Assembly (NCBI RefSeq): GCF_055900595.2
Contig: NZ_JBVWEU010000004.1
Reading direction: 5' to 3' (one strand)
DNA from: a plasmid
Length of the DNA: 41,714 nt
The position numbers were made by a program, and so were the translations under genes. Every line of letters begins with the position of its first letter. The stretch's first letter is position 1. The notes below the pieces were generated by a model. It was given only the letters and a program-made list of their open reading frames with translations. It had not been told where the DNA came from and ran no database searches. Shown here in pieces: positions 868 through 35,916 of the stretch.

Positions 868-929
868 TCTGTAATTTTTATTTCCTCCCCCCTTAGTTTG
901 TTGCTGACATATGGGGGGATACTGAACTT

Positions 930-1719: not shown

Positions 1720-1728
1720 AGGTGATAA

Positions 1729-3908: not shown

Positions 3909-3985
3909 TTTCGCCATGGCGATTTCACATCTAACTTATTGTAATTAGGCAGTTTAGGCTGAGAATTTCAAGGTGAAATCGCCAA
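3909..3985. promoter_or_regulatory. parS: P1-type parS centromere (heptamer box A ATTTCAC and hexamer box B TCGCCA in inverted arrangement)
   Basis: TCGCCA at 3912-3917 and ATTTCAC at 3922-3928; GTGAAATCGCCA at 3973-3984; the 11-bp arms GGCGATTTCAC / GTGAAATCGCC flank an AT-rich 44-bp spacer. Matches my recollection of P1 parS. Confidence 0.6.
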
Positions 3986-3989
3986 AGTT

Positions 3990-5692: not shown

Positions 5693-5716
5693 CTTTCCTC
5701 CTGACACTCTAATTTT

Positions 5717-5734
5717 ACTGGTTATACATACAGT
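5717..5734. promoter_or_regulatory. LexA (SOS) box upstream of umuD
   Basis: ACTGGTTATACATACAGT contains CTG-N10-CAG matching the CTGT-N8-ACAG consensus, 25 bp upstream of the umuD start. Confidence 0.6.
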
Positions 5735-5739
5735 GCTCA

Positions 5740-7680: not shown

Positions 7681-7736
7681 GGATAATGGTGCCAACTTAC
7701 TGATTTAGTGTACGATGGTGTCTTTGAGGTGCTCCA

Positions 7737-8012
7737 GTGGCTTCCATCTCCATCAGTTGTCCCTCCTGCTCAGCTACTGAAGGCGTGGTGCGTAACGGTA
7801 AAAGTACTGCCGGACATCAGCGCTATCTCTGCTCTCACTGCCGTAAAACATGGCAGCTACAGTTCACTTACACCGCCTCTCAGCCCGGTACGCACCAGAA
7901 AATCATTGATATGGCCATGAATGGCGTTGGATGCCGGGCAACCGCCCGCATTATGGGCGTTGGCCTCAACACGATTTTACGTCACTTAAAAAACTCAGAC
8001 CGCAGTCGGTAA
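7737..8012 (+). CDS. insA: IS1 InsA
   Basis: 91 aa, [40 protein letters not shown] zinc-finger N-terminus. Confidence 0.9.
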
Positions 8013-8434
8013 CCTCACGCATACAACCGGGCAGTGACGTCATTGTCTGCGCGGAAATGGACGAACAGTGGGGCTACGTCGGGGCTAAATCACGTCAGCG
8101 CTGGTTATTTTACGCCTATGGCAGGATGTGCAGGACGGTGGTGGCACGCGTCTTTGGTGAGCGTACTCTGGCCACGCTGGAGCGTCTTCCGGGCCTGCTG
8201 TCGGCCTTTGAGGTCGTGGTATGGATGACGGATGGCTGGCCGCTTTATGAATCCCGCCTGAAGGGAGAACTGCACGTTATCAGCAAGCGATATACGCAGC
8301 GAATTGAGCGGCATAACCAGAATCTGAGGCAGCATCTGGCAAGGCTGGGCAGGAAGTCACTGTCGTTCTCAAAATCGGTGGCGCTGCATGACAAAGTCAT
8401 CGGGCATTATCTGAACATAAAACACTATCAGTAA
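7931..8434 (+). CDS. insB: IS1 InsB' frame (expressed as an InsAB' transposase fusion by -1 frameshift)
   Basis: 167-aa ORF overlapping the insA 3' end in the -1 frame, standard IS1 organisation. Confidence 0.8.
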
Positions 8435-8448
8435 GTTGGAGTCATTAC

Positions 8449-8752
8449 CAACCAGTTCACCACCTACTCGCTCCGCGATTGTGGCAGTCTTCGAAATCCC
8501 CGGACGATCCGCCTTTATGAAAGTCTTGCTCAATTCAAATCTTCAGGCTTATGGGTTACTACTCATGCTTGGTTAAATGACCGTTTCGTCTTACCGGAAT
8601 CCCAGCAGAAGAACTTGGCAGAGTTGAAACGATCTTTCCTTGATCCTGCACTCAAGCAGATAAATGAGAAAACACCTTTACTTGCTAAGTATAGTATTGA
8701 TGATTCAGGAAAATTTCTGTTCTCAATAATTGATAAGCAAAATCCCGTCTGA
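8449..8752 (+). pseudogene. 3' fragment (about 97 codons) of a second RepE-family rep gene, truncated by IS1
   Basis: Frame starting at 8462 translates ...TYSLRDCGSLRNPRTIRLYESLAQFKSSGLWVTTHAWLNDRFVLPESQQKNLAELKRSFLDPALKQINEKTPL..., paralogous to the C-terminus of the rep at 1-867; no start codon, begins at the IS1 end. Confidence 0.7.
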
Positions 8753-8799
8753 CATAAATCAGCACACATGAGCCTGTCATTTGACAAATTTTTGTCATG

Positions 8800-9160
8800 A
8801 AGATGGGCGGATTTCCACACAGCACCGGCGCCCGGTAAGGTGGGCGGATTCCCACACGGCACCGGCGCCCGGCAAGATGGGCGGATTTCCACACAGCACC
8901 GGCGCCCGGTAAGGTGGGCGGATTTCCACACAGCACCGGCGCCCGGCAAGGTGGGCGGATTCCCACACGGCACCGGCGCCCGGCAAGATGGGCGGATTTC
9001 CACACAGCACCGGCGCCCGGTAAGGTGGGCGGATTTCCACACAGCACCGGCGCCCGGCAAGGTGGGCGGATTCCCACACGGCACCGGCGCGCGGCAAGGT
9101 GGGCGGATTTCCACACGGCACCGGCGCCCGGCAAGGTGGGCCGATTCCCATATCGACATG
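8800..9160. repeat. About ten direct 37-bp iterons (GGGCGGATTTCCACACAGCACCGGCGCCCGG) of the disrupted second replicon
   Basis: Exact 37-bp periodicity from about 8801 to 9134, immediately downstream of the rep fragment. Confidence 0.8.
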
Positions 9161-9641
9161 TATGTAGCTTGTGTTATCTGTGGATTGTGCAGCTCAGCGG
9201 GTCGCTGGTCGTATGGCGGAGTGTCCCCCGTAACCGGCCGCGTGCGGCCGCTAACGCGCAGTACGGCGCCGCGTCCCGCAGACGGGCCGCCGTTCCCGCG
9301 CGCAGCACTGCGCACCCCCGTGGGGGACGTACGGCAGCTGCGTGGCGGTGAGCGGGATTAGGGCTTTGCAGCTACCGTGTTAAGTTCCCTGGTGTCGCTG
9401 AAATAGTTGATGAACATCCCCCTAAGCGTCAGCAGCAAGCTGCCGCCGCTTAGGCCCCGGAAATCACGCCCTTTACGTCGTAAACGCCGTAAAGCCCGCT
9501 CACCGGGGTTAAAAGGGATTACTTTGACTTCTTCATTGCTGTTCGCGAGTTAAGGCTAATCAGGGCAGGGGGTAGGGTGGCAGAATTTATAGCCCGGCAA
9601 CCGGCTACGCCGGGCTTTCGGCGCCATTTTACAACACAGAC

Positions 9642-19743: not shown

Positions 19744-22700
19744 ATGCCCGTTGACTTTCTGACCACTGAGCAGACTGAAAGCTATGGCAGATTCACCGGT
19801 GAACCGGATGAGCTTCAGCTGGCACGATATTTTCACCTTGATGAAGCAGACAAGGAATTTATCGGAAAAAGCAGAGGTGATCACAACCGTCTGGGCATTG
19901 CCCTGCAAATTGGATGTGTCCGTTTTCTGGGCACCTTCCTCACCGATATGAATCATATTCCTTCCGGCGTCCGGCATTTTACCGCCAGACAGCTCGGGAT
20001 TCGTGATATCACCGTTCTTGCAGAATACGGTCAGAGGGAAAATACCCGCCGTGAGCATGCAGCGCTGATACGTCAGCACTATCAGTATCGTGAATTTGCC
20101 TGGCCCTGGACATTTCGCCTTACCCGTCTTTTATATACCCGGAGCTGGATAAGCAACGAACGTCCTGGCCTGCTTTTCGATCTGGCGACAGGGTGGCTTA
20201 TGCAACATCGTATTATTCTCCCCGGAGCCACTACGCTGACCCGGTTGATTTCAGAGGTAAGGGAAAAGGCGACGTTGCGCCTGTGGAACAAACTGGCACT
20301 GATACCGTCAGCCGAACAGCGTTCACAGCTGGAGATGCTGCTGGGGCCAACTGATTGCAGCCGCCTGTCTTTACTGGAATCACTGAAAAAGGGCCCTGTG
20401 ACCATCAGTGGTCCGGCGTTTAATGAAGCAATTGAACGCTGGAAAACTCTGAACGATTTTGGCCTGCATGCTGAAAACCTGAGTACACTCCCGGCTGTGC
20501 GCCTGAAAAATCTCGCACGTTATGCTGGTATGACTTCGGTGTTCAATATTGCCAGGATGTCACCGCAGAAAAGGATGGCGGTTCTGGTTGCCTTTGTCCT
20601 TGCATGGGAAACGCTGGCGCTGGATGATGCATTGGACGTTCTGGACGCCATGCTGGCCGTTATCATCCGTGACGCCAGAAAGATTGGGCAGAAAAAACGG
20701 CTCCGCTCGCTGAAGGATCTGGATAAATCTGCATTGGCGCTCGCCAGCGCATGTTCGTACCTGCTGAAAGAAGAAACACCGGACGAATCGATTCGTGCTG
20801 AGGTGTTCAGCTACATCCCAAGGCAAAAGCTGGCTGAAATCATCACGCTTGTCCGTGAAATTGCCCGGCCCTCAGACGATAATTTTCATGAAGAAATGGT
20901 GGAGCAGTACGGGCGCGTTCGTCGTTTCCTGCCCCATCTGCTGAATACCGTTAAATTTTCATCCGCACCTGCCGGGGTTACCACTCTGAATGCCTGTGAC
21001 TACCTCAGCCGGGAGTTCAGCTCACGGCGGCAGTTTTTTGACGACGCACCAACGGAAATTATCAGTCGGTCATGGAAACGGCTGGTGATTAACAAGGAAA
21101 AACATATCACCCGCAGGGGATACACGCTCTGCTTTCTCAGTAAACTGCAGGATAGTCTGAGGCGGAGGGATGTCTACGTTACCGGCAGTAACCGGTGGGG
21201 AGATCCTCGTGCAAGATTACTACAGGGTGCTGACTGGCAGGCAAACCGGATTAAGGTTTATCGTTCTTTGGGGCACCCGACAGACCCGCAGGAAGCAATA
21301 AAATCTCTGGGTCATCAGCTTGATAGTCGTTACAGACAGGTTGCTGCACGTCTTTGCGAAAATGAGGCTGTCGAACTCGATGTTTCTGGCCCGAAGCCCC
21401 GGTTGACAATTTCTCCCCTCGCCAGTCTTGATGAGCCGGACAGTCTGAAACGACTGAGCAAAATGATCAGTGATCTACTCCCTCCGGTGGATTTAACGGA
21501 GTTGCTGCTCGAAATTAACGCCCATACCGGATTTGCTGATGAGTTTTTCCATGCTAGTGAAGCCAGTGCCAGAGTTGATGATCTGCCCGTCAGCATCAGC
21601 GCCGTGCTGATGGCTGAAGCCTGCAATATCGGTCTGGAACCACTGATCAGATCAAATGTTCCTGCACTGACCCGACACCGGCTGAACTGGACAAAAGCGA
21701 ACTATCTGCGGGCTGAAACTATCACCAGCGCTAATGCCAGACTGGTTGATTTTCAGGCAACGCTGCCACTGGCACAGATATGGGGTGGAGGAGAAGTGGC
21801 ATCTGCAGATGGAATGCGCTTTGTTACGCCAGTCAGAACAATCAATGCCGGACCGAACCGCAAATACTTTGGTAATAACAGAGGGATCACCTGGTACAAC
21901 TTTGTGTCCGATCAGTATTCCGGCTTTCATGGCATCGTTATACCGGGGACGCTGAGGGACTCTATCTTTGTGCTGGAAGGTCTTCTGGAACAGGAGACCG
22001 GGCTGAATCCAACCGAAATTATGACCGATACAGCAGGTGCCAGCGAACTTGTCTTTGGCCTTTTCTGGCTGCTGGGATACCAGTTTTCTCCACGCCTGGC
22101 TGATGCCGGTGCTTCGGTTTTCTGGCGAATGGACCATGATGCCGACTATGGCGTGCTGAATGATATTGCCAGAGGGCAATCAGATCCCCGAAAAATAGTC
22201 CTTCAGTGGGACGAAATGATCCGGACCGCTGGCTCCCTGAAGCTGGGCAAAGTACAGGTTTCAGTGCTGGTCCGTTCATTGCTGAAAAGTGAACGTCCTT
22301 CCGGACTGACTCAGGCAATCATTGAAGTGGGGCGCATCAACAAAACGCTGTATCTGCTTAATTATATTGATGATGAAGATTACCGCCGGCGCATTCTGAC
22401 CCAGCTTAATCGGGGAGAAAGTCGCCATGCCGTTGCCAGAGCCATCTGTCACGGTCAAAAAGGTGAGATAAGAAAACGATATACCGACGGTCAGGAAGAT
22501 CAACTGGGCACACTGGGGCTGGTCACTAACGCCGTCGTGTTATGGAACACTATTTATATGCAGGCAGCCCTGGATCATCTCCGGGCGCAGGGTGAAACAC
22601 TGAATGATGAAGATATCGCACGCCTCTCCCCGCTTTGCCACGGACATATCAATATGCTCGGCCATTATTCCTTCACGCTGGCAGAACTGGTGACCAAAGG

Positions 22701-22749
22701 ACATCTGAGACCATTAAAAGAGGCGTCAGAGGCAGAAAACGTTGCTTAA
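19744..22749 (+). CDS. tnpA: Tn3 transposase TnpA
   Basis: 1001 aa from [17 protein letters not shown]; the stop abuts the Tn3 inverted repeat. Confidence 0.95.
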
Positions 22750-22782
22750 CGTGAGTTTTCGTTCCACTGAGCGTCAGACCCC

Positions 22783-25424
22783 TTGTTCAGGCCGGCATGC
22801 ACGCGGCGGCGCAGTTCAACACTTTGCAGCCAGTCCAGGATGAACAGCGTGCGCTCGATCCGGCCCAGCTCGCGCAGGGCCACGGCCAGTCCGTTCTGGC
22901 GCGGGTAGCTGCCGAGCTTGCGCAGCATCAGCGAGGCGGTGACGGTGCCCTGCTTGATCGAGCTGGCCAGGCGCAGGATGTCGTCCCAGTGGGCACGCAC
23001 GTGCTTGATGTTCAGGGTGCCGCCGATCAGCGGGCGCAACGTCGGGTAGGCTTGCACGCCCTGCGGCACGTACAGTTTGGTTTCGCCGAGGTCGCGGATG
23101 CGCGGCGCGAAGCGGAAGCCTAGCAGGTGCATCAGGGCAAAGACGTGATCGGTGAAGCCGGCCGTGTCGGTGTAGTGCTCCTCGATCCGCAGGTCGGACT
23201 CGTGGTACAGCAGGCCGTCGAGCACATAGGTGGAATCGCGGACGCCGACATTCACCACGCGGGTGCTGAACGGCGCGTACTGGTCGGAGATATGGGTATA
23301 GAACAGCCGTCCCGGCTCGCTACCGTACTTCGGGTTGACGTGCCCGGTGCTCTCGCCCCGGCCACCCGCGCGGAAGCGCTGGCCATCGGAGGATGAGGTC
23401 GTGCCGTCGCCCCAGTGGGCGGCAAAGGCGTGGCGATACTGGTGGTTGACCAGCTCGGCCAAGGCCGCCGAATAGGTTTCGTCGCGGATGTGCCAGGCTT
23501 GCAGCCAGGACAGCTTGGCGTAGGTCAGGCCGGGGCTCGACTCGGCCATCTTGGTCAGCCCGAGGTTGATCGCATCACCGAGGATTGCGGACAGCAGCAA
23601 CGTCCTGTCTTTGGCCTCGGCCCCGTCCTTCAAGTGGGTGAAGTGGCGGCTGAAGCCCGTCCAGTCGTCCACGTCCATCAGCAGTTCGGTGATCTTGATG
23701 CGCGGCAGTAACTGGCTGGTTTGGTCGATCAGCGCCTGCGCCCGATCCGGCACCGCCGCATCCAGCGGGGTGATTTTCAGCCCTGACTCGGTGAGGATGG
23801 CATCGGGCAGCTCGTTGTCCTTGGCCAGGCGGGTGACGGTGGCCAACTGCTCGTCCAGCAGCTGCAAACGCTCTTCCAGGTACTGGTCGCTGTTCGGGTT
23901 GATCGCCAGGGGCAGGGCCTGCTCGCGCTTGAGTGCGGCGAACTTCTCGGCCGGCAGCAGGTAGTCGTCGAAGTCGCGGAACTGCCGCGAGCCCTTGACC
24001 CAGATGTCGCCGGAGCGCAGGGCGTTCTTCAGCTCGGACAGGGCGCAGATTTCGTAGAATTTCCGGTCGAGGCCTTCCGGGGTGATCACCAGCGGCTTCC
24101 AGCGCGGCTTGATGAAGGCCGTGGGTGCATCGGCCGGCACCTTGCGCAGGTTGTCGGCGTTCATCTCACGCAGGGTCTGCACGGCTGCCAGCACGCCTTG
24201 CGCGGCCGGCGCGGCGCGCAGTTCCAGCACCTCCAGCAAGGCCGGCGTGTAACGGCGCAGGGTGGCGAAGTTCTCGCCGACCAGGTGCAGGTGGTCGAAG
24301 CCTTCCGGCCGGGCCAGCAGCTCGGCCTCGCTGACGCTCTCGGTGAACTCGTCCCAGGGAATCACCGCCTCGATGGCGGCATAGGGGTCGCTGCCGCTTT
24401 CCTTCGCTTCCAGCAGCGCCTGGCCGATCCTGGAGTACAGGCGCACCTTGTCGTTGATCGCCTTGCCCTGCTTCTGGAACTGCTGCTGATGCTTGTGCTT
24501 CGCGCCGCTGAACAGCTTGACCAGGATGCGGTCATGCAGATCGACCAGCTCATCGATCACGGTCGCGGTGCTCTCCAGCACCACGGCGGCCAGGGTCGCG
24601 TAGCGGCGCTGCGGCTCGAACTTACCGAGGTCTTTGGGCGTCATCTGCCCACCCTCGCGGGCCAGCTTGAGCAGGCGGTTCTGGTGGATGTGCCGGCCCA
24701 GGCCTTCGGGCAAGTCCACCAACTGAAATGTCTTCAGCCGCTCGATGTGTTCCAGCATGTGCCGAGAGTTGGGTTTCAGCGGTGCCTGGCGCAGCCAGGT
24801 CAACCAGGTGATGCTGCTGCCGGCCTTGAGCTTCAACAGCTCGTCCAGCTTGGCCCGATGCGAGTCCGTGAGTGGTTCGACCAGGGCGCGGTAGACCCGC
24901 CGATTGGCTCGCGCAATGGCTTCCGAGCAGGCCCGGTCAATCACGCTCAGCGCCGGCAGGATGCGTCGTTTCTGCCGTAGGCTCTCCAGGGCCTGACCGG
25001 CCAGCAGCAAGCCTTTGTCGGTCTGCTGGGCCAGCTCGGTTAGCTCGCGCACCAGGGCGCGGAAGTCGGACAGGCCGAACGGGGCCAGTTGCAGGTAGGT
25101 GCGCAGTTCCTGGGCATGCTCGCGACGGGTCACGTCGCGCTCGCCGTACTTTGCCCAGCTCGCCGGCTCGGCCTGGACTTGCTTCGCCACCCACAGGATG
25201 ACCGGCTCGGGCAGCTCGCTGTCGGTTCCCAGCGCGTAACCGGGGTAGCGCAGCAGGCAGAGCTGCACGGCGAAGCCGAGGCGGTTGGCGTCGCCGCGTC
25301 GCTGGCGGATCAGCGACAGGTCGGAGTCGTTGAAGGTGTAGTAGCGGATCAGGTCATCCTGGCTTTCCGGCAGCGCAAGCAGGGTGTCCCGCTCCGTGGC
25401 CGAGAGGATCAAGCGACGCGGCAT
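22783..25424 (-). pseudogene. tnpA: Tn1721-type tnpA, 5' 2.6 kb, gene disrupted by the Tn3 insertion
   Basis: N-terminus [31 protein letters not shown] (Tn21-subgroup transposase); the frame runs into the Tn3 IR. Confidence 0.85.
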
Positions 25425-25427
25425 GTG

Positions 25428-25988
25428 TCAGTCGTCCGTGCGGAGGTACTGGTAGAGGGTTTCCCGGCTGATGTTGAACTCGCGGGCAAGCTGCGCCTTG
25501 GGCTCGCCGGCCGTCGCTCGCTGCCGCAGGGTAGCAGCCTGCTCATCGGACAGGGCTTTCTTGCGGCCCCGGTACGCGCCACGCTGCTTGGCCAAGGCGA
25601 TGCCCTCACGCTGCCGCTCGCGGATCAGGGCGCGCTCGAACTCAGCGAAGGCCCCCATCACCGACAGCATCAGGTTGGCCATCGGCGAGTCCTCGCCAGT
25701 GAACACCAGGCCCTCCTTCAGGAACTCGATGCGCACGCCGCGCTGAGTCAGCTTCTGTACCAAGCGACGCAGGTCATCGAGGTTGCGGGCCAGCCGATCC
25801 ATGCTGTGCACCACCACTGTATCGCCTTCGCGGACGAAGCTCAGCAGCGCTTCGAGCTGGGGGCGCTGGGTGTCCTTGCCCGATGCCTTGTCGGTGAACA
25901 CCTTGCTCACCTGGGTTTGTTCCAGCTGGCGTTCCGGGTTCTGGTCAAAGCTGCTGACCCGGACGTAGCCGATGCGGTGCCCCTGCAC
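25428..25988 (-). CDS. tnpR: Tn21/Tn1721-type resolvase TnpR
   Basis: 186 aa, MQGHRIGYVRVSSFDQNPERQ serine recombinase. Confidence 0.9.
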   Translation of the reverse strand: MQGHRIGYVRVSSFDQNPERQLEQTQVSKVFTDKASGKDTQRPQLEALLSFVREGDTVVVHSMDRLARNLDDLRRLVQKLTQRGVRIEFLKEGLVFTGEDSPMANLMLSVMGAFAEFERALIRERQREGIALAKQRGAYRGRKKALSDEQAATLRQRATAGEPKAQLAREFNISRETLYQYLRTDD

Positions 25989-26160
25989 GATGTCTCCTTG
26001 GTTGAAGGCGGCTTAAGTGCACTTTCTGTTCCGTTGTGCCTCAAAGCCCATTTCTGTCAGGCTGAAATCTATAACCTTCGCGGGCATGTGTCAAAAAATG
26101 GGAAAGCAGACTCTATTCTGACGAAGCGGCGCGGCCCTGCCTGACATCAAGTTAGGGTAT
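25989..26160. promoter_or_regulatory. Tn21-subgroup res site region
   Basis: Intergenic segment upstream of tnpR with TGTCAGG-type repeats; likely the junction between the Tn1721-like and Tn21-like segments. Confidence 0.5.
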
Positions 26161-26163
26161 GCC

Positions 26164-26514
26164 TCAACCTGACGGCGGCGAATCACAAGCGTCCGGTTTG
26201 ACGCTGGTTTCGGTCGCAGTGCTGGCCCGCGCCTGGAAGCGCTGATAGCACTCCAGCCCGCAGAAATGCTCCACGTACTCGGCCCCTTCCGGCGTGAAGG
26301 CGGCATCGAGCGGGATTTCCTTGCAGCACACGCAGCAACTGGTGCTCGGTTCATTGGCGTTCATGGTGGTGTTCCTCCATTGGTTGACGAAGCCGACGAA
26401 GGCCGCCGCCGGCATCGGCCTGGCGAACAGGAAACCCTGCACCGTGTCGCAACCCGCCTGCCGCAACCACGCAAGGCAGTCGGGTGTTTCCACACCCTCG
26501 GCTACCACCTCCAT
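26164..26514 (-). pseudogene. urf2/tnpM remnant (EAL-domain C-terminal fragment) truncated by the integron IRi
   Basis: Translation ...[30 protein letters not shown]... begins at the integron boundary. Confidence 0.5.
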
Positions 26515-26539
26515 TGTCGTTTTCAGAAGACGGCTGCAC
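26515..26539. repeat. Class 1 integron IRi (25 bp)
   Basis: TGTCGTTTTCAGAAGACGGCTGCAC. Confidence 0.8.
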
Positions 26540-26716
26540 TGAACGTCAGAAGCCGACTGCACTATAGCAGCGGAGGGGTTGGATCCATCAGGCAACGACG
26601 GGCTGCTGCCGGCCATCAGCGGACGCAGGGAGGACTTTCCGCAACCGGCCGTTCGATGCGGCACCGATGGCCTTCGCGCAGGGGTAGTGAATCCGCCAGG
26701 ATTGACTTGCGCTGCC

Positions 26717-27730
26717 CTACCTCTCACTAGTGAGGGGCGGCAGCGCATCAAGCGGTGAGCGCACTCCGGCACCGCCAACTTTCAGCACATGCGTGTAAAT
26801 CATCGTCGTAGAGACGTCGGAATGGCCGAGCAGATCCTGCACGGTTCGAATGTCGTAACCGCTGCGGAGCAAGGCCGTCGCGAACGAGTGGCGGAGGGTG
26901 TGCGGTGTGGCGGGCTTCGTGATGCCTGCTTGTTCTACGGCACGTTTGAAGGCGCGCTGAAAGGTCTGGTCATACATGTGATGGCGACGCACGACACCGC
27001 TCCGTGGATCGGTCGAATGCGTGTGCTGCGCAAAAACCCAGAACCACGGCCAGGAATGCCCGGCGCGCGGATACTTCCGCTCAAGGGCGTCGGGAAGCGC
27101 AACGCCGCTGCGGCCCTCGGCCTGGTCCTTCAGCCACCATGCCCGTGCACGCGACAGCTGCTCGCGCAGGCTGGGTGCCAAGCTCTCGGGTAACATCAAG
27201 GCCCGATCCTTGGAGCCCTTGCCCTCCCGCACGATGATCGTGCCGTGATCGAAATCCAGATCCTTGACCCGCAGTTGCAAACCCTCACTGATCCGCATGC
27301 CCGTTCCATACAGAAGCTGGGCGAACAAACGATGCTCGCCTTCCAGAAAACCGAGGATGCGAACCACTTCATCCGGGGTCAGCACCACCGGCAAGCGCCG
27401 CGACGGCCGAGGTCTTCCGATCTCCTGAAGCCAGGGCAGATCCGTGCACAGCACCTTGCCGTAGAAGAACAGCAAGGCCGCCAATGCCTGACGATGCGTG
27501 GAGACCGAAACCTTGCGCTCGTTCGCCAGCCAGGACAGAAATGCCTCGACTTCGCTGCTGCCCAAGGTTGCCGGGTGACGCACACCGTGGAAACGGATGA
27601 AGGCACGAACCCAGTTGACATAAGCCTGTTCGGTTCGTAAACTGTAATGCAAGTAGCGTATGCGCTCACGCAACTGGTCCAGAACCTTGACCGAACGCAG
27701 CGGTGGTAACGGCGCAGTGGCGGTTTTCAT
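26717..27730 (-). CDS. intI1: Class 1 integron integrase IntI1
   Basis: 337 aa full length; tyrosine recombinase motifs; Arg32/Asn39 variant. Confidence 0.95.
27615..27643 (+). promoter_or_regulatory. Integron cassette promoter Pc, strong variant (TTGACA-N17-TAAACT)
   Basis: -35 at 27615-27620 and -10 at 27638-27643, inside intI1 on the cassette strand. Confidence 0.7.
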
Positions 27731-27874
27731 GGCTTGTTATGACTGTTTTTTTGTACAGTCTATGCCTCGGGCATCCAAGCAGCAAGCGCGTTACGCCGTG
27801 GGTCGATGTTTGATGTTATGGAGCAGCAACGATGTTACGCAGCAGGGCAGACGCCCTAAAACAAAGTTAGCCAT

Positions 27875-28372
27875 ATGAACTCGGAATCAGTACGCATTTA
27901 TCTCGTTGCTGCGATGGGAGCCAATCGGGTTATTGGCAATGGTCCTAATATCCCCTGGAAAATTCCGGGTGAGCAGAAGATTTTTCGCAGACTCACTGAG
28001 GGAAAAGTCGTTGTCATGGGGCGAAAGACCTTTGAGTCTATCGGCAAGCCTCTACCGAACCGTCACACATTGGTAATCTCACGCCAAGCTAACTACCGCG
28101 CCACTGGCTGCGTAGTTGTTTCAACGCTGTCGCACGCTATCGCTTTGGCATCCGAACTCGGCAATGAACTCTACGTCGCGGGCGGAGCTGAGATATACAC
28201 TCTGGCACTACCTCACGCCCACGGCGTGTTTCTATCTGAGGTACATCAAACCTTCGAGGGTGACGCCTTCTTCCCAATGCTCAACGAAACAGAATTCGAG
28301 CTTGTCTCAACCGAAACCATTCAAGCTGTAATTCCGTACACCCACTCCGTTTATGCGCGTCGAAACGGCTAA
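27875..28372 (+). CDS. dfrA12: Trimethoprim-resistant dihydrofolate reductase, dfrA12-like
   Basis: 165 aa, MNSESVRIYLVAAMGANRVIGNGPNIPWKIPGEQ; first cassette after attI1. Confidence 0.9.
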   Translation: MNSESVRIYLVAAMGANRVIGNGPNIPWKIPGEQKIFRRLTEGKVVVMGRKTFESIGKPLPNRHTLVISRQANYRATGCVVVSTLSHAIALASELGNELYVAGGAEIYTLALPHAHGVFLSEVHQTFEGDAFFPMLNETEFELVSTETIQAVIPYTHSVYARRNG

Positions 28373-28470
28373 CCATTCCGTCAACGGGACGCCAAAATGC
28401 TGCGCATTTTGGTTCCCTCCGCTGCGCTCCGGCTCTCGTTACGTCCAACGTTAGCACCACTGAAACCCAG
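28373..28470 (+). other. attC recombination site of the dfrA12 cassette
   Basis: Imperfect inverted-repeat structure ending in GTTAGC-type core after the dfrA12 stop. Confidence 0.5.
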
Positions 28471-28483
28471 CTTTATTTAGCTC

Positions 28484-28774
28484 ATGTTTATTCAAACGGC
28501 ATTTAGCTTTTCAGGCGTTATTCAGTGCCTGTTTTGCCTTTTTTCCGGGCTTCGCCTGCATGGGCTGCGCAGGTTTTCAGTCTTTTTGGCCTCTAGCCCT
28601 TGCGTAGCAAGCGCAAGCAGCTATCGTTTTTGCAGTGCTGTGCCGCCTCGGTGGCGCAGCGTTTTTTCACGGTTAGCGCCCGTCGCCAAATTCAAGTTAT
28701 CCGTTTTGGCTTCTGGTTCTAACATTTCGGTCAAGCCGACCCGCATTCTGCGGTCGGCTTACCTCGCCCGTTAG
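28484..28774 (+). CDS. Cassette ORF of unknown function (orfF/gcuF)
   Basis: 96-aa ORF between dfrA12 and aadA, in the position of the known dfrA12-orfF-aadA2 array. Confidence 0.6.
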   Translation: MFIQTAFSFSGVIQCLFCLFSGLRLHGLRRFSVFLASSPCVASASSYRFCSAVPPRWRSVFSRLAPVAKFKLSVLASGSNISVKPTRILRSAYLAR

Positions 28775-28779
28775 ACATC

Positions 28780-29571
28780 ATGAGGGAAGCGGTGACCATC
28801 GAAATTTCGAACCAACTATCAGAGGTGCTAAGCGTCATTGAGCGCCATCTGGAATCAACGTTGCTGGCCGTGCATTTGTACGGCTCCGCAGTGGATGGCG
28901 GCCTGAAGCCATACAGCGATATTGATTTGTTGGTTACTGTGGCCGTAAAGCTTGATGAAACAACGCGGCGAGCTTTGATCAACGACCTTTTGGAAACTTC
29001 GGCTTCCCCTGGAGAGAGCGAGATTCTCCGCGCTGTAGAAGTCACCATTGTTGTGCACGACGACATCATTCCGTGGCGTTATCCAGCTAAGCGCGAACTG
29101 CAATTTGGAGAATGGCAGCGCAATGACATTCTTGCAGGTATCTTCGAGCCAGCCACGATCGACATTGATCTGGCTATCTTGCTGACAAAAGCAAGAGAAC
29201 ATAGCGTTGCCTTGGTAGGTCCAGCGGCGGAGGAACTCTTTGATCCGGTTCCTGAACAGGATCTATTTGAGGCGCTAAATGAAACCTTAACGCTATGGAA
29301 CTCGCCGCCCGACTGGGCTGGCGATGAGCGAAATGTAGTGCTTACGTTGTCCCGCATTTGGTACAGCGCAGTAACCGGCAAAATCGCGCCGAAGGATGTC
29401 GCTGCCGACTGGGCAATGGAGCGCCTGCCGGCCCAGTATCAGCCCGTCATACTTGAAGCTAGACAGGCTTATCTTGGACAAGAAGAAGATCGCTTGGCCT
29501 CCCGCGCAGATCAGTTGGAAGAATTTGTTCACTACGTGAAAGGCGAGATCACCAAGGTAGTCGGCAAATAA
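28780..29571 (+). CDS. aadA: Aminoglycoside (3'')(9) adenylyltransferase AadA, apparently mosaic (aadA2-like 5' end, aadA1-like remainder)
   Basis: 263 aa; residues about 1-65 (TIEISNQLSEVLSV...VAVKLDETTRR) resemble aadA2, the remaining about 200 aa match my recollection of aadA1 (RLASRADQLEEFVHYVKGEITKVVGK). Confidence 0.9.
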   Translation: MREAVTIEISNQLSEVLSVIERHLESTLLAVHLYGSAVDGGLKPYSDIDLLVTVAVKLDETTRRALINDLLETSASPGESEILRAVEVTIVVHDDIIPWRYPAKRELQFGEWQRNDILAGIFEPATIDIDLAILLTKAREHSVALVGPAAEELFDPVPEQDLFEALNETLTLWNSPPDWAGDERNVVLTLSRIWYSAVTGKIAPKDVAADWAMERLPAQYQPVILEARQAYLGQEEDRLASRADQLEEFVHYVKGEITKVVGK

Positions 29572-29632
29572 TGTCTAACAATTCGTTCAAGCCGACGCCG
29601 CTTCGCGGCGCGGCTTAACTCAAGCGTTAGAT
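29572..29632 (+). other. attC site, aadA1-type (60 bp)
   Basis: TCTAACAATTCGTTCAAGCCGACGCCGCTTCGCGGCGCGGCTTAACTCAAGCGTTAGAT. Confidence 0.6.
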
Positions 29633-29740
29633 GCCAGATTTGGCGTTGCGTATGCTCACAGAAAATCGACAGCCGCAAGACTGTTTTTGGCAACTCATAG
29701 CCACCACTATTTATCCTTCATACCGTAGAGGAGATTGCAC

Positions 29741-30073
29741 GTGAAGAACTGGCTCTTTCTGGCTATTGCAATATTTGGTGAGGTCGTCGCAACTTCCGCA
29801 CTGAAGTCCAGCCATGGATTCACCAAGTTAGTTCCTTCTGTTGTAGTTGTGGCTGGCTACGGGCTTGCGTTCTATTTCCTCTCTCTCGCACTCAAGTCCA
29901 TCCCGGTCGGCATTGCTTATGCTGTTTGGGCTGGCCTCGGCATCGTACTTGTGGCAGCTATCGCTTGGATCTTCCATGGCCAGAAACTAGACTTGTGGGC
30001 GTTCGTTGGCATGGGACTTATCGTTAGTGGCGTCGCCGTTCTAAATCTGCTATCCAAGGTCAGCGCACATTGA
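29741..30073 (+). CDS. qacH: SMR-family quaternary ammonium compound efflux protein (qacH/qacF-like cassette)
   Basis: 110 aa from a GTG start, four-TM SMR fold ([23 protein letters not shown]); not qacEdelta1. Confidence 0.8.
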
Positions 30074-30140
30074 TCGGGCTGGCATCTAACAGTTCATTCA
30101 AGCCGACGCCGCTTCGCGGCGCGGCTTAATTCAGGTGTTA
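30074..30140 (+). other. attC-like site after the qac cassette
   Basis: Sequence similar to the aadA attC (CAAGCCGACGCCGCTTCGCGGCGCGGCTTAA). Confidence 0.4.
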
Positions 30141-30319
30141 GTCGGACGCCTACGGCGCCGAGGAAAAAAGAAACCAAACCATTCTTGCTGCCAAAGAGAA
30201 AAACCCCTTACGGTGGCGTACTGGGAAAGTGCGTATCTACGACGCCTTGCCGGTCTCAATGTCATGCCGTCCTCTTTCGAAGGCTGCTTGATGCAAACCT
30301 CTCAAAAATCTGGCATAAA

Positions 30320-31006
30320 CTATCTTGACATATTCCGATTGAACACCTTCCGAATATCAGCGGCTATCAGCGGGATCTCATCTTTTTTCGTGACGTAGGA
30401 GTGGGCATTCTGCTGCAGATGAAACTGGCAGCGTTGCCACAGAATTCCAGGGAAGACAGCATCGATTGCCGCGCGCAGTCCTGAGTGGTCATCACTGGTG
30501 ATCATTCGCAGGCCGTGCATCCCTCGTCGTACGAGACCCTCGAGAAAGGAACGCCAGTTTACCTCTGCCTCACTGTTCGCGACTTCGGCGTCAAGAATAT
30601 GCCGATTCCCGCTGTAATCAACGCCAATAGCCACTAGAAGCGCCTGCTTGACCACATGGGAACCGACGCGAACCGATTCATAGGTCGCATCAAGTACCAA
30701 GTATTGAATCTGTCCGACAGGCTGCGCCTTCCAAGACGTAATCTCTTCATCGAGCTCCTTTGCCAGCCTGCTGACCTGGGACGAGCTGACTTCGGTGCCA
30801 CAAAGAATTTCGACGATATCCGAGACCCTGCGGGTACTTACTCCTTTGACATACATTTCGGCGATGGCGAGCTTGAGAGCACGCTCACTGCGCATGCCTT
30901 TCTCGATGCAGCTGGGATAAAACTCCATCCCGCGAACTTGTGGTACTTTCAAGAGGACTTTCCCGGTCGCAAGATTGAATATTGGATTATTTGGATTTAC
31001 CAACAA
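30320..31006 (-). pseudogene. Internal fragment of an IS256-family transposase (IS440-like element reported next to sul3)
   Basis: 228 aa aligning to the middle of IS256-family transposases (YPSCIEKGMRSERALKLAIAEMY...WQRCQFHLQQNA); both the N- and C-terminal parts are absent. Confidence 0.7.
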
Positions 31007-31250
31007 ACACTACTATTTAGCTACGAAAACTCAAGAGAAGTACACAAAACCTTTTGGAAGTGATGGAAGTTTAAGTCCTCTTGATTATAGTGTAGGTATT
31101 GGAACAGGTTTAGAATTAGGACATTTCCAGTTTATGTTTGGCTATGATTACCCTCTTAGTAACAGTTCGAAAGATCCAGACCTAAGTCAAGTACGCCAAC
31201 ACAACTTCAGAGCAAGTATAGCATATTCATTTAGAAAGCTAAAAAAATAA
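30975..31250 (+). pseudogene. Possible C-terminal fragment of an outer-membrane beta-barrel protein
   Basis: 91-aa ORF with alternating hydrophobic pattern in low-GC DNA; weak. Confidence 0.3.
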
Positions 31251-31252
31251 AA

Positions 31253-32044
31253 CTAACCAAGGGCTTTGGATATTTTCAAGGCATCTGATAAAGACTTAAC
31301 ATCATGGGTGCGGAGATAATCTGCACCTTTTTTGTATGCATACATTTCTGCTGCAAGAGTTGGTGCTAAACGAGATTTCACATCGGTTCCAGTTATTTTA
31401 CCTAAGAATGATTTCCGTGACACTGCAATCATTACTTGCAAATTAAAAGCTTCTTGAATTTCAGGGAAACGCTTCAAAACAAGAATAGATGTTTCTGGAT
31501 TAGAGCCTAAAAAGAAGCCCATACCCGGATCAAGAATAATTCGTTCACGCTTTACACCAGCCTCAACTAAAGCAGCAATTCTTTCTTTAAAAAATTCCAT
31601 CATGGAAGTAAAAACCTCTTCCGGATTCGTTTCAACTTTAGTAGCTGCACCAATTCGCTGAACGGAGTGCATCAACACAAGTTTGCAATCTGACTTTGCC
31701 AAGCCTGAATAAATCTCAGGATAAGGAAAACCTTGAATATCATTAATAAAATCAACCTTTTGTTCTATGCAAAAACTCTGAACCTCAGGTTTAAATGTAT
31801 CAACAGAAATAGAAATGCCTTTTTCTTTTAAAGCCTTAATGACAGGTTTGAGTCTTTTGATTTCTTCCACAACGCCCACTTCAGTTGTATCAGGATTACT
31901 GGAAGCGGCTCCCAAATCAATCACATCTGCTCCATCTTCAACCAAATGCAGAGCATGCTCAATTGCCTTATCTGTATCTAAATAAAGTCCTCCATCGGAA
32001 AAACTATCGGTGGTTATATTTACGATTCCAAAAATCTTGCTCAT
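31253..32044 (-). CDS. sul3: Sulfonamide-resistant dihydropteroate synthase Sul3
   Basis: 263 aa, MSKIFGIVNITTDSFSDGG; low-GC context. Confidence 0.9.
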   Translation of the reverse strand: MSKIFGIVNITTDSFSDGGLYLDTDKAIEHALHLVEDGADVIDLGAASSNPDTTEVGVVEEIKRLKPVIKALKEKGISISVDTFKPEVQSFCIEQKVDFINDIQGFPYPEIYSGLAKSDCKLVLMHSVQRIGAATKVETNPEEVFTSMMEFFKERIAALVEAGVKRERIILDPGMGFFLGSNPETSILVLKRFPEIQEAFNLQVMIAVSRKSFLGKITGTDVKSRLAPTLAAEMYAYKKGADYLRTHDVKSLSDALKISKALG

Positions 32045-32795
32045 ATCATTTTGCTTTGATTACAAAAGTAGCATTTATCTTAATTGACTAATTATCACTT
32101 ACGCAAATTGACACATTTTCCCTATCTTTGCAGCCTAATTTTTTTGTTTTAATTCATTATGAAAACTGATAGGAACTGTCATTTCGAGTTTTTCGCGGTT
32201 TTGGGTCAAAATTCGGTTTTTTCCCCGAACTACGACTGTTTTCGCACCCCGAACAACTAATCCAATCAGAATTTTCCGGCAACGCCGACTCCAAGAAGTG
32301 TAATTCCAGTCTATTTCTGCCGTCAACCCCTGATTCGCGTTAATGCGACAAAGCTCAAACACATAACTCCCCCACGAAGCCATATAAACTCCGATTTCGA
32401 GGTGTTATCCTGTTCCGCATAAACTTCGTTTTTGGGTATTATACCTACACCAAAGCAAGAAGATTATGGGTCCAAACTTCATTTGTATATTTTGCAAACA
32501 AATATCTGCCTGTCATATCTGTCGGAGTGTGGTGATACTCCTTTGCATTAAAAATGCGCTGATAAAAGGTAGTTCAGCAAAAGGCGAAACGCCAATAAAT
32601 ATATCTATAACCGGTTTCGCCCGTTGATTGGGTATCGCCGTGCTTCCGATATGTTCAATGGCTACGGCATGAGAACCGAAAAAATGGAGCAATTTTATTT
32701 TCTCTTCTTCAAAATTCTTTGTCTAATCCGGGTTATATTCCATAATTTCAATTTTCATGATAGTTTCGTCCTTGCCTCAAAAACCATGTTTGGTA

Positions 32796-33659
32796 TTATA
32801 CTCCATATCTCTCCGGTGCAGGAATAGCCTTTTCTGATGCACGGCTAACAGCTTCCCATTCTTCCCAGGTAGCCATCCGTGCTTTTAAGGTATCCATCGC
32901 CAAATCGTATACCATGCTGCCAAGGATAAGCCTCAAAGGCGGATTATTGCTGGCTACTAATTTCATAAGGGCTTCCGCTGCCAAGGAAGGATCACTATCG
33001 ACCGAATCTTCGGAATACTGTTTCGCCAGCTCATCGCGCAGTGTACCGTATGAATCTAATGGATTGCTGTAACTCATCGAAGTGTATAAATCTGTCCAAT
33101 ATCCTCCTGGTTCCACCATAGTGAGTTTCACTCCGAAATGTTCCGCTTCTTTTGCTAAGGCTTCACTCATTCCTTCCAGCGCAAATTTACTTGCACTGTA
33201 AATACCAGACATCGGACCCGAGATAATAGCGCCAATGCTTGTAATCTGTATGATATGTCCAGAACGCTGCGACCTCAAATAGGGCATCACTGCCTGACAA
33301 ACCCAAAGAGCTCCAAAAAAGTTTGTGTCCATTAGTTTCCGAGCATCGGATTCGTTTAGTTCTTCAATCATACCCATAGTCATGATACCCGCATTATTAA
33401 CAACAATATCAAGCCTACCGAAATGTTTAACTGCTGTTTCAACCGTAGAAAAAACAGCCTCCCTATCTGTAACATCGAGGTTTAATGGCAGTAAGCTCTC
33501 TTGATATGTTTCTTCTAGCTTCGCCAAATTATCGATAGTCCTTGCAACTGCAACAACTTTATCCCCGGCTTTCAAGGCGGCGCATGTAAAAGCATAGCCA
33601 AGCCCCTTGCTTGCTCCGGTAATAAACCATACTCTTTTATTTTCGCTATTAGGTATCAT
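32796..33659 (-). CDS. Short-chain dehydrogenase/reductase (SDR) family oxidoreductase
   Basis: 287 aa; TGASKGLG Rossmann motif and YSASK catalytic motif. Confidence 0.8.
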   Translation of the reverse strand: MIPNSENKRVWFITGASKGLGYAFTCAALKAGDKVVAVARTIDNLAKLEETYQESLLPLNLDVTDREAVFSTVETAVKHFGRLDIVVNNAGIMTMGMIEELNESDARKLMDTNFFGALWVCQAVMPYLRSQRSGHIIQITSIGAIISGPMSGIYSASKFALEGMSEALAKEAEHFGVKLTMVEPGGYWTDLYTSMSYSNPLDSYGTLRDELAKQYSEDSVDSDPSLAAEALMKLVASNNPPLRLILGSMVYDLAMDTLKARMATWEEWEAVSRASEKAIPAPERYGV

Positions 33660-33804
33660 AGATATTCTCCTTTAGGCTATTATAGAAAGATTATTATAAG
33701 CGAAATTAATACCGTTAAACGCCATGAGCCCGACAATTTTGAGCACTTTGTTTTGTACTCCCAGAAGCTCACCACTACAAATTATCATCAACCCGGTCCT
33801 TTTT

Positions 33805-34064
33805 TCAGTCCACTTGCGGTTTCATTGTTACTTTGTCATAGCGTCGTGTCAGAATGCGGCAGAGAACAGCGTTTACTATCAACGCAACACCAGACCAGAA
33901 AAACCATGTATTAACACCTATAACCTCAACAACCGGACCTGCAACAAGTAAGCCTATCGGCATAGAAAGAGTCATGGCGGTCATCAAAAGGGAAAACACC
34001 TTGCCCATCATTTCAGGGGCAATGCTTTCTTGAACATAAGCCATAACAGGAACATTCATAAATG
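33805..34064 (-). pseudogene. mef(B): C-terminal fragment of an MFS efflux transporter, probably truncated mef(B), cut by IS26
   Basis: About 85 codons of transmembrane C-terminus ending at the IS26 inverted repeat. Confidence 0.6.
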
Positions 34065-34884
34065 GGCACTGTTGCAAAGTTAGCGATGAGGCAGCCTTTT
34101 GTCTTATTCAAAGGCCTTACATTTCAAAAACTCTGCTTACCAGGCGCATTTCGCCCAGGGGATCACCATAATAAAATGCTGAGGCCTGGCCTTTGCGTAG
34201 TGCACGCATCACCTCAATACCTTTGATGGTGGCGTAAGCCGTCTTCATGGATTTAAATCCCAGCGTGGCGCCGATTATCCGTTTCAGTTTGCCATGATCG
34301 CATTCAATCACGTTGTTCCGGTACTTAATCTGTCGGTGTTCAACGTCAGACGGGCACCGGCCTTCGCGTTTGAGCAGAGCAAGCGCGCGACCATAGGCGG
34401 GCGCTTTATCCGTGTTGATGAATCGCGGGATCTGCCACTTCTTCACGTTGTTGAGGATTTTACCCAGAAACCGGTATGCAGCTTTGCTGTTACGACGGGA
34501 GGAGAGATAAAAATCGACAGTGCGGCCCCGGCTGTCGACGGCCCGGTACAGATACGCCCAGCGGCCATTGACCTTCACGTAGGTTTCATCCATGTGCCAC
34601 GGGCAAAGATCGGAAGGGTTACGCCAGTACCAGCGCAGCCGTTTTTCCATTTCAGGCGCATAACGCTGAACCCAGCGGTAAATCGTGGAGTGATCGACAT
34701 TCACTCCGCGTTCAGCCAGCATCTCCTGCAGCTCACGGTAACTGATGCCGTATTTGCAGTACCAGCGTACGGCCCACAGAATGATGTCACGCTGAAAATG
34801 CCGGCCTTTGAATGGGTTCATGTGCAGCTCCATCAGCAAAAGGGGATGATAAGTTTATCACCACCGACTATTTGCAACAGTGCC
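34065..34884 (-). mobile_element. IS26 (820 bp)
   Basis: 14-bp terminal inverted repeats GGCACTGTTGCAAA; no 8-bp target duplication. Confidence 0.95.
34117..34821 (-). CDS. tnpA: IS26 transposase Tnp26
   Basis: 234 aa from MNPFKGRHFQRDIILWAVRWYCKYGISYRE. Confidence 0.95.
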   Translation of the reverse strand: MNPFKGRHFQRDIILWAVRWYCKYGISYRELQEMLAERGVNVDHSTIYRWVQRYAPEMEKRLRWYWRNPSDLCPWHMDETYVKVNGRWAYLYRAVDSRGRTVDFYLSSRRNSKAAYRFLGKILNNVKKWQIPRFINTDKAPAYGRALALLKREGRCPSDVEHRQIKYRNNVIECDHGKLKRIIGATLGFKSMKTAYATIKGIEVMRALRKGQASAFYYGDPLGEMRLVSRVFEM

Positions 34885-35916
34885 ATAACGACTGCGTTTG
34901 CGAATGATCCTGTGCCCCAGAAAGATAAAGCCGTCATTAACATGGGTGATTTTAGTCTTATCCATGTTCAGCCTGAGTTTCAGACTGCCTTCGAGCACAC
35001 CCCGACACTCCTCCCTGATGGCTTCCGCCTGTGCTTTGGTGCCTTTGACGATGGGGACAAAATCATCGGCATAGCGGCAGTACGCCACCGCGGGTTTCCA
35101 CTGCCAGTTTTCTCTGACCGCCGTACTTCGGCCCCGTTGGATACTGTTATTCCAGTACCACCGATCTTTTCTGGCTTTCCCGCTCAGGTAGCGCTCATGC
35201 AGGTATTGATCGAACTCATTCAGCATGATGTTCGATAATAGCGGCGATATAACACCGCCCTGTGGCACACCTTCACTGGCCGCCCGAAAGAGACCGACAT
35301 CGATATGTCCCGCCTTGATGGTTTTCCACAGCAGAGTCATGAAACGTGCGTCACTGATCCTGCGGCGTACAGCCTTCATCAGCAGTCGATGATGTACGGT
35401 GTCGAAGTAACTGGACAGGTCGCCTTCAATCACCCAGCGTCCCCGGGTTTCACCGCAGTCTGTGAGCTGTAATTTCACCGTGCGGATCGCGTGGTGGACA
35501 CTGCGCTCAGGCCGGAAGCCATATGAGAGCGTATGAAAATCACTCTCCCATATCGGCTCCATCGCCATCAGCATGGCCCGCTGAACAATACGATCCCGCA
35601 ACGCGGGGATACCCAGTGGTCGCAGTTTGCCGTTGCTTTTAGGGATGTAAACCCGTCTGGCGGGCAAGGGCTGGTAGTGGCCTGAGAGTAATTCATCCCT
35701 GAGGATTTGCAGCTCAACAGCCAGTCTGGCCTGTAGCATTGTTTTGTTCACGCCATCAACGCCGGGGGTATGCGCCCCCTTTGATGAAAGCGTGATCCGC
35801 GCCGCTTCAGCCAGCCATTCTGGTTGTGTTATCAGACGCAGCAGCCGTTGAATCCGTAGGGACGGATCGGTGGCTGCCCATGTGGCAAGCTTGCGTTGCA
35901 TTTCGCTGATTATCAA
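34885..35916 (-). pseudogene. Group II intron reverse transcriptase/maturase, C-terminally truncated by IS26
   Basis: RT domains 0-7 with YADD motif (CRYADDFV); the frame runs into the IS26 end. Confidence 0.8.

Follow-up and report, generated by a model that had tools for sequence, protein, structure and literature searches.

A sul3-associated class 1 integron carrying the PcS promoter and a hybrid aadA cassette, and the sequences that adjoin its sul3 gene

Class 1 integrons that end in sul3, often called "atypical" and known from the gut bacteria of farm animals and humans, have a well-described anatomy: the published form reads intI1-dfrA12-orfF-aadA2-cmlA1-aadA1-qacH-IS440-sul3, with deletion derivatives on record (PMC9319951, PMC4129628), and these two papers cite Antunes 2007, Saenz 2010, Curiao 2011 and Moran 2016 for the structure. 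Further right, the end of mef(B) that is cut by the insertion sequence (IS) IS26 has been named mefB-delta260, the globally dominant form, usually found within Tn21 (PMC9319951), and published surveys report sul3 arrays with the cassette promoters PcH1 or PcW. As for the resistance gene itself, phylogeny and GC content were used to place sul3 beside the folP of Leptospiraceae (Sanchez-Osuna et al., 2019), and according to a 2023 paper neither the direct ancestor nor the capture mechanism of the sul genes had been identified. In this article, I will discuss a copy of this integron at positions 26515 to 34064 of a plasmid stretch of 41,714 nucleotides (NCBI RefSeq assembly GCF_055900595.2, contig NZ_JBVWEU010000004.1), the whole of which is called the window below. 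With a probability of roughly 95%, the region is a known sul3-associated class 1 integron at the Tn21-type urf2/tnpM site, recombinant and equipped with the PcS promoter. In PLSDB, 175 or more plasmids cover no less than 80% of the region, the best at 99.8% identity, and the annotated homologues keep the same gene order, so that the alignment to described sul3 integrons proposed in a preliminary description of this DNA comes out in its favor; that description did not mention that the structure has a name and has been widely reported. The integron is thus already known and ordinary, and the only part worth following up is a side result on the origin of sul3.

An ordinary left end and an atypical right end

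The left end is that of any class 1 integron, with intI1, attI1, a cassette promoter inside intI1 and cassettes bounded by attC sites. The inverted repeat IRi (TGTCGTTTTCAGAAGACGGCTGCAC; 26515-26539, plus strand), an exact 25-bp match present once in the window, forms the outer end of the 5' conserved segment (5'-CS) and is followed by an intact intI1 of 337 aa (26717-27730, minus strand; NF011946, 798 bits, residues 1-337 of 337). The cassette promoter Pc (27615-27643, plus strand) consists of TTGACA at 27615-27620, a 17-nt spacer and TAAACT at 27638-27643 with no TGN motif, which is PcS as defined in Table 1 of Jove et al. (2010), and it ranked first, matching at 10 of 12 positions, in a blind sigma-70 scan of 27400-34200. 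The preliminary description had called this strong variant, TTGACA-N17-TAAACT, from the letters alone, had found it consistent with IntI1 Arg32/Asn39 and had named misread hexamers as a way to be wrong; direct re-reading returns the same TTGACA and TAAACT, and intI1 encodes Arg at codon 32 (CGA) and Asn at codon 39 (AAC), in agreement with the pairing of PcS with R32/N39 in Table 3 of Jove et al. (2010). When bases were swapped in silico, the T of the -35 hexamer gave N39, and the TGN-10 change would give P32. Jove et al. (2010) put PcS at about 25 times and PcW-TGN-10 at about 15 times the strength of PcW, and give the share of class 1 integrons with PcS as 24%; judging by its hexamers, the copy here should be the strongest of the common cassette promoters with a probably small functional gain over PcW-TGN-10, and a strong Pc is unremarkable in itself. 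The second promoter, P2 (27734-27759, plus strand), reads TTGTTA-N14-TACAGT, an inactive form, since its activity requires a 17-nt spacer (Jove et al., 2010), and overlaps an intact LexA box, CTGT-N8-ACAG at 27743-27758, a site whose role is known from the literature. Next comes attI1 (27802-27866, plus strand), ending at the G of GTTAGCC (27866/27867) and carrying a lineage-marker single-nucleotide polymorphism (SNP), A, at 27851. Because intI1, attI1 and IRi are intact, cassette capture and excision should remain possible, and the four cassettes would be transcribed rightward from PcS inside intI1; sul3 could not be read from Pc and would rely on its own upstream region or on a promoter in the adjoining remnant of ISCR (insertion sequence common region) type described below.

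The right end departs from the typical ("clinical") class 1 integron in lacking the 3' conserved segment (3'-CS), qacEdelta1-sul1(-orf5). Across all 41.7 kb, a blastn search with 3 kb of qacEdelta1-sul1-orf5-tni from pSC138 gave only a 66% qacE/qacH match, and the sole match to a Sul1 protein query was sul3 at 43%; together with intI1, PcS and the attC cassettes, these negative probes bear out the earlier claim of a class 1 integron without a 3'-CS, and the realignment that could have overturned it by exposing qacEdelta1-sul1 exposed none. The inverted repeat IRt was not found in the window, and the tni-remnant query from pSC138 (tniB) had no match there, so the element is not of the transposable Tn402 type, which has IRt and a tni module, and should not transpose autonomously because both are absent. 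What follows the last attC, whose core is GTTAGTC divided after the G, is a 182-bp stretch (30138-30319) with no family match and a GC content of 0.51, and then a fragment of an IS256-family transposase gene ("IS440"; 30320-30971, minus strand) that covers model positions 31-244 of 338 in NF033543 and so does miss both ends, as described earlier. It is a remnant without a complete transposase: 885 PLSDB records match it at 99% or more, nearly all others fall below 60%, and the PLSDB plasmids showed no close relative of full length. The 5'-CS has a GC content of 0.61, the cassettes 0.52, this fragment 0.53, the sul3 unit 0.355 and the stretch from there to IS26 0.38-0.44; the fall comes at about 30972, where the value goes from about 0.52 down to 0.36, and it is reversed at IS26. 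The preliminary description was therefore right about a low-GC region on the sul3 side and wrong to count the IS256-family fragment in it, as low GC begins at 30972. With qacH as the last cassette, the IS440 fragment and an inverse sul3 behind it and mef(B) cut to 260 bp, the segment is the sul3 conserved segment (sul3-CS) of the published integrons.

The promoter sets this copy apart from most of its relatives. The dfrA12-type sul3 integrons used for comparison have PcW-TGN-10 with IntI1 P32/H39 (L002, L003), and another (L001) has PcH1. SNP 27851A was found, besides the window, only in L004 and L005, and the combination of PcS, 27851A and a nonsense mutation in a GrpB-family fragment downstream of the array is common to the window, pCFSAN061769_03 and Escherichia coli D6 plasmid A (lineage markers shared with NZ_CP042972.1 and NZ_CP010149.1; for L004 and L005 the GrpB mutation is deduced from a shorter annotated coding sequence), so PcS marks a minority lineage among sul3 integrons. 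The simplest reading would be that the left part was exchanged earlier, by homologous recombination with an In27-type integron, and pSC138, which carries such an integron, is identical to the window over 26515-27900 except at 27851. PcS could instead have arisen in place, by three point mutations from PcW-TGN-10, and it is true that 26141-28900 differs from L002 and L003 only at 27616, 27636 and 27641 (all in Pc), 27851 and 26150; however, three coordinated changes that happen to yield the exact PcS haplotype are a less economical explanation than a single homologous exchange when a very common PcS-dfrA12-gcuF-aadA2 integron matches as closely as pSC138 does, and the tnpR and tnpA genes farther upstream also differ from those of Tn21-type plasmids, suggesting that the whole left part was swapped, which makes an origin in place unlikely.

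A probable deletion between aadA2 and aadA1

Four cassettes, all on the plus strand, are bounded by GTTRRRY cores read at 28450, 28770, 29626 and 30137: dfrA12 (27867-28450, 584 bp; gene 27875-28372; NF000053, 385 bits against a cut-off of 360), gcuF/orfF (28451-28770, 320 bp; open reading frame (ORF) 28484-28774, assigned to DUF1010 in the annotation of homologous plasmids), an aadA hybrid (28771-29626, 856 bp; gene 28780-29571) and qacH, which NCBI names qacL/QacL (29627-30137, 511 bp; gene 29741-30073; NF000067, 227 bits against a cut-off of 205). The third of these joins the 5' part of aadA2 to the 3' part of aadA1 and the aadA1 attC. Aligned with a full-length array, it shows zero mismatches to aadA2 before 28962 and zero to aadA1 after 28949, confining the crossover to 28950-28961, and the hybrid protein scores under the AadA1 and AadA3 allele cut-offs. 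Over 21144-34884 the window equals pCFSAN061769_03 (from E. coli in raw-milk cheese, Egypt) minus 2405 bp, a loss that runs from the 3' part of aadA2 through cmlA1 into the 5' part of aadA1; 21144-28961, in the aadA2 register, and 28950-34884, in the aadA1 register, are each identical to L005. Identity on both flanks of the junction argues that only one event took place, between the two aadA genes. The ancestor would then be a longer array, dfrA12-gcuF-aadA2-cmlA1-aadA1-qacH, of the same PcS lineage (as in pCFSAN061769_03 and E. coli D6 plasmid A), from which one homology-driven aadA2/aadA1 deletion would have removed cmlA1. Deletions of this kind recur, since other plasmids have independent aadA2/aadA1 crossovers at different points (annotated aadA25, aadA8/aadA8b and others).

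Could the integrase have shortened the array by excising whole cassettes, namely cmlA1 and one aadA? The integrase gene and all attC sites appear intact and cassette loss by the integrase is normal integron activity, but its cuts fall at attC cores and would leave aadA2 or aadA1 whole, whereas the sequence here changes from aadA2 to aadA1 within the coding region and both the 3' half and the attC are of aadA1 type; since the junction is within coding sequence, IntI1-mediated excision is an explanation I regard as very improbable, and a homologous deletion between the two aadA genes is preferred.

Some points weigh against the picture of a simple recombinant in a Tn21 setting. The perfect-identity tract at the crossover is only 12 bp long, which is short for a classical RecA exchange, so that the deletion may instead have come about by replication slippage, or by a longer exchange with subsequent mismatch correction, which is as plausible as a simple RecA crossover. 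Moreover, neither PLSDB nor the set of 5,426 complete E. coli RefSeq genomes contains the exact stretch from Pc to qacH, the best match having 99.6% identity and about 10 mismatches; as the exact recombinant has no database match, an assembly artefact in the source record is conceivable. Finally, the carrier transposon would be a hybrid and not Tn21 itself, to judge from its left side. The integron interrupts a gene for an EAL-type phosphodiesterase, of which the C-terminal part (urf2/tnpM 3' end, EAL domain; 26164-26514, minus strand) remains, and the 374 bp at 26141-26514 equal the Tn21-type sul3 plasmids L002 and L003 except for one mismatch at 26150, whereas tnpR and tnpA to the left (22746-26141) are only 77-79% identical to those plasmids; the break at 26141, where identity sets in, suggests that the hybrid formed at the res site.

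The gene neighbourhood of sul3 and an ISCR20-like terminus

The sul3 gene (31253-32044, minus strand; NF000296, 613.6 bits against a cut-off of 475) encodes a protein identical to the reference Sul3, and the Sul-type segment DPGMGFFLGS is essentially conserved in 23 aligned family members, chromosomal ones included, with one F not invariant. The preliminary description had sul3, a short-chain dehydrogenase/reductase (SDR) oxidoreductase gene and a truncated mef-like gene on the strand opposite to the cassettes, and indeed all three are on the minus strand, mef(B) being reduced to its last 260 bp; what it missed were the tail of an outer membrane protein (OMP) gene at 30975-31250, an ISCR-type remnant at 32165-32459, a GrpB pseudogene at 32513-32758 and the hybrid nature of aadA. 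The 3' end of an OMP_b-brl_2 gene (30972-31250, plus strand; ORF 30975-31250, "hypothetical" on plasmids; weak PF13568 match) is 90% identical at the amino acid level over 93 residues to a gene in L006 that is complete there, with 217 aa, and convergent with folP. On the other side of sul3, 32045-32164 (minus strand) corresponds to the folP-metG intergenic region plus the first 6 nt of metG, colinear with L006, L007, L010, L092 and L093, and the junction falls directly after the ATGAAA of the first two metG codons. In all, 1.19 kb of the window (30972-32164) is colinear, non-coding sequence included, with chromosomal metG-folP-OMP loci of uncultured Bacteroidales at 83-84% nucleotide identity (L006 9880-11070, L007 789-1992, L092 2858-4052, L093 260-1454), and FolP proteins at 86-92% identity to Sul3 occur on contigs from 5.5 kb to 807 kb.

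A metagenome scan with a pattern spanning the metG start, chosen so as to leave out plasmid copies, returned two Joint Genome Institute (JGI) contigs with the right synteny, at 84.3% nucleotide and 92.4% protein identity. The order metG-folP-OMP-FKBP-LUD-pssA-psd is common to L006, L007 and a Paludibacteraceae metagenome-assembled genome (MAG), L011, whose FolP is 71% identical and where the order, on the only contig long enough, runs on through cdsA into ftsH; L092 and L093 share the ThiF/MaoC...metG-folP-OMP side, and no mobile-element genes were called among the metG-folP-OMP neighbours in L006 or L007. The methionyl-tRNA synthetase (MetRS) encoded beside folP is nearest to that of Paludibacteraceae MAGs (89%) and then Bacteroides (85-86%). 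Paludibacteraceae is, by sequence, probably the nearest named family to the donor lineage; only one of the close contigs has a stated host, and it belongs to a water-buffalo rumen MAG with FolP at 81%. The GC content of the sul3 unit, 0.355, equals that of the host contigs at 0.35-0.36. About 20 nt 5' of the start codon lies a TAnnTTTG motif (TACTTTTG), kept in all five aligned sequences, which I take to be the Bacteroidetes promoter consensus. Since the neighbouring genes are truncated stubs on the plasmid and complete on the chromosome, transfer went from chromosome to plasmid. No chromosomal folP above 95% nucleotide identity to sul3 was found, the metagenome scan included, and the immediate donor was thus not recovered. 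A side observation concerns the uneven evolution of this neighbourhood: between L006 and L007, MetRS is 98.9% identical, FolP only 85.6% and the FKBP protein 68%, possibly as a result of allelic exchange at folP.

The piece of metG abuts a 295-bp end remnant of an ISCR20-like element of the IS91 family (32165-32459, minus strand), the oriIS-side end, whose terminus ...GAAATGACAGTTCCTATCAGT faces sul3. The remnant is 97.6% identical to L095 5279-5574 in pYDC637, a stretch that opens with the final 15 nt of the transposase gene (stop at 5293) and closes with the terminus at 5574, in an element upstream of rmtE1 that the literature calls ISCR20-like, and 98.6% identical to L010 3342-3636; the elements in L010 and pYDC637 share 100% of the transposase protein sequence and 99.7% of the nucleotides. 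Of the HUH/Y2 transposase gene, only the last 15 nt persist in the window (32445-32459). The oriIS-side end sequence and its terminus are there, the terminus being identical in three contexts and adjoining a different, unrelated sequence in each (metG'-sul3 in the window, rmtE1 in pYDC637 and an OMP stub in L010), and one terminus abutting three unrelated sequences is therefore a true element end, which I infer to be a functional oriIS from its position relative to the transposase gene and from the comparison of contexts. The L010 locus, at the end of a 569-kb MAG contig (CALGIJ010000019.1), holds a second sul3-like unit, at 89% protein and 83% nucleotide identity, with metG and OMP stubs cut at other points, between an integron-integrase-like gene and the intact ISCR20-like element. 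Plasmids with full-length mef(B) carry a second ISCR20-like terminus upstream of that gene (L002 12823-12983), and in its ancestral form the sul3-CS would therefore seem to have consisted of two modules with an ISCR20-like end at the head of each. Another folP-like gene (L014) also has a related ISCR at its flank, and sul4 has already been linked to ISCR20/28 in the literature. Separately, a 243-bp part of an ISCR20-like end lies directly upstream of armA in pKP048 (L096 4001-4243).

Two smaller features fall inside the remnant. A candidate sigma-70-like site, TTGACG-N18-TACACT (32326-32297, minus strand), points toward sul3 and is possibly an outward promoter, by analogy with the kind shown experimentally for ISCR1. 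An ORF of 82 aa (32135-32383) was considered as a real gene and rejected, as it lies inside the remnant and its Pfam match is only sub-threshold.

I would give about even odds that 30972-32164 is a piece of a locus of about 35% GC from an uncultured member of the Bacteroidales, captured at an ISCR20-like terminus, an origin that would replace the one from Leptospiraceae and name the vehicle. The older view would have sul3 mobilized from Leptospiraceae and the Bacteroidales loci as secondary recipients of a mobile sul3-like gene, and it has behind it the phylogeny and GC placement of 2019 (Sanchez-Osuna et al., 2019) as well as the circulation of Sul3-like genes at 81% identity in unrelated gut anaerobes. 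However, Leptospiraceae folP has only about 50% nucleotide identity to sul3, to be set against the 83-84% that runs through coding and non-coding sequence alike in the Bacteroidales; there, folP sits between complete metG and OMP genes in a conserved order with no mobile genes called in L006 or L007, the plasmid holds only stubs of these neighbours, and the unit has the GC content of the Bacteroidales contigs, all of which renders a Leptospiraceae origin improbable. A full-text search, with subscription journals outside its coverage, found no literature linking sul3 to Bacteroidales or Paludibacter, or to ISCR, IS91, oriIS or ISCR20.

The 81% relatives deserve a remark of their own. The protein P0121 (in the cluster of P0004; loci L008 and L009), labelled Sul3 by one source, is found on 528 contigs, some of which belong to a Victivallales genome and to a Bariatricus MAG, and so, from these sequences, Sul3 relatives appear to circulate among gut anaerobes outside the Proteobacteria.

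Beyond the remnant, the GrpB-family fragment (32513-32758, minus strand) is a pseudogene in which TGG has become TAG at codon 12 (W12stop, 32724). The SDR gene that follows (32796-33659, minus strand; NF006114, 464 bits) is called yusZ in the annotation of one matching plasmid; its closest outside relatives, at 90% protein and 87% nucleotide identity over the gene only, share no flanks with it and lie on contigs that look Firmicutes-like, one with a neighbour carrying a Spo0A_C domain, and its closest named relatives are Bacilli at about 80%. By sequence, its source was probably a member of the Firmicutes; on the strength of the SDR gene, with relatives on such contigs and no common flanks, a donor shared with sul3 for the SDR gene, GrpB and mef(B) was rejected. 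The low-GC region is a mosaic. The mef(B) remnant, mefB-delta260 (33805-34064, minus strand), is the 3'-terminal 260 bp of the gene (NF000051, model positions 326-409 of 409) and is cut by an IS26 of 820 bp (34065-34884, minus strand; tnp26 34117-34821; both inverted repeats present) at which the structure ends. This single IS26 has no target-site duplication; its 8-bp flanks, CATAAATG and ATAACGAC, are unlike, so it joins two unrelated segments and is not a simple insertion.

The surroundings, the stakes and the described relatives

To the right of IS26 lies a gene for a group II intron reverse transcriptase/maturase that is cut by it (34858-35916). On the far left, the tnpA that precedes the integron lacks its 3' end, having been cut by a Tn2/Tn3 copy (tnpA 19585-22749, tnpR 19023-19616, blaTEM 17980-18840), and 1-17200 is plasmid backbone and other resistance modules, with parA/parB-like backbone genes (1729-3908), umuC (3990-5261), an IS5-family element (9674-10642), a Tn3-family tnpA fragment (12015-13835) and tet(A)/tetR (15216-17171).

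As an integron, this is another derivative of the sul3 platform, of epidemiological interest only, in livestock and human Enterobacterales; the platform spreads resistance to trimethoprim, streptomycin/spectinomycin, quaternary ammonium compounds and sulfonamides, all of it predicted for this copy from its genes, which should also have lost chloramphenicol resistance together with cmlA1. The relics beside sul3 carry more weight, for they make the origin and capture of sul3 directly testable: the donor can be sought in Bacteroidales of the gut, rumen and digesters, and it can be tested whether ISCR20-like elements are recurrent collectors of folP and sul genes. If true, this would give sul3 a much closer donor lineage than Leptospiraceae at about 50%, and a named capture vehicle.

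Among known ISCR units, the nearest parallels are ISCR20-like-rmtE1 in pYDC637, ISCR20/ISCR28-sul4 and ISCR2-glmM'-sul2, in each of which, as here, the resistance gene adjoins an oriIS-side IS91/ISCR terminus, and the metG and OMP stubs are to sul3 what glmM' is to sul2 and the folK part to sul4, namely the donor's neighbours. Unlike those units, sul3 retains only 295 bp of the element with no transposase gene, and is therefore no longer mobile by the ISCR route.

Among integrons, the window shares with the published sul3 form the 5'-CS, the dfrA12-gcuF start, qacH as last cassette, IS440, the inverse sul3, SDR and mef(B) genes, the mefB-delta260-IS26 junction and the urf2/tnpM site, and differs in having a hybrid aadA instead of cmlA1 and the facing halves of aadA2 and aadA1, and in tnpR and tnpA of another Tn21-subgroup type; it also has PcS where the comparison sul3 plasmids and the tables in the literature have PcW-TGN-10 or PcH1. 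The pLAO28/EH08-18-36 type (NZ_OP242252.1, NZ_CP063512.1), dfrA12-gcuF-'aadA25'-qacL-sul3, has the same four-cassette layout at 99.8% identity, but its crossover lies further 5', between 28873 and 28911, and it has PcW-TGN-10 (IntI1 P32/H39), a full-length mef(B) and the second ISCR20-like terminus upstream of it. The In27-type integron of pSC138, dfrA12-gcuF-aadA2-qacEdelta1-sul1, possesses the 3'-CS that the window lacks (qacEdelta1, sul1, orf5 and a tni remnant), while its PcS 5'-CS, dfrA12, gcuF and the 5' part of aadA2 are a single base away from those described here.

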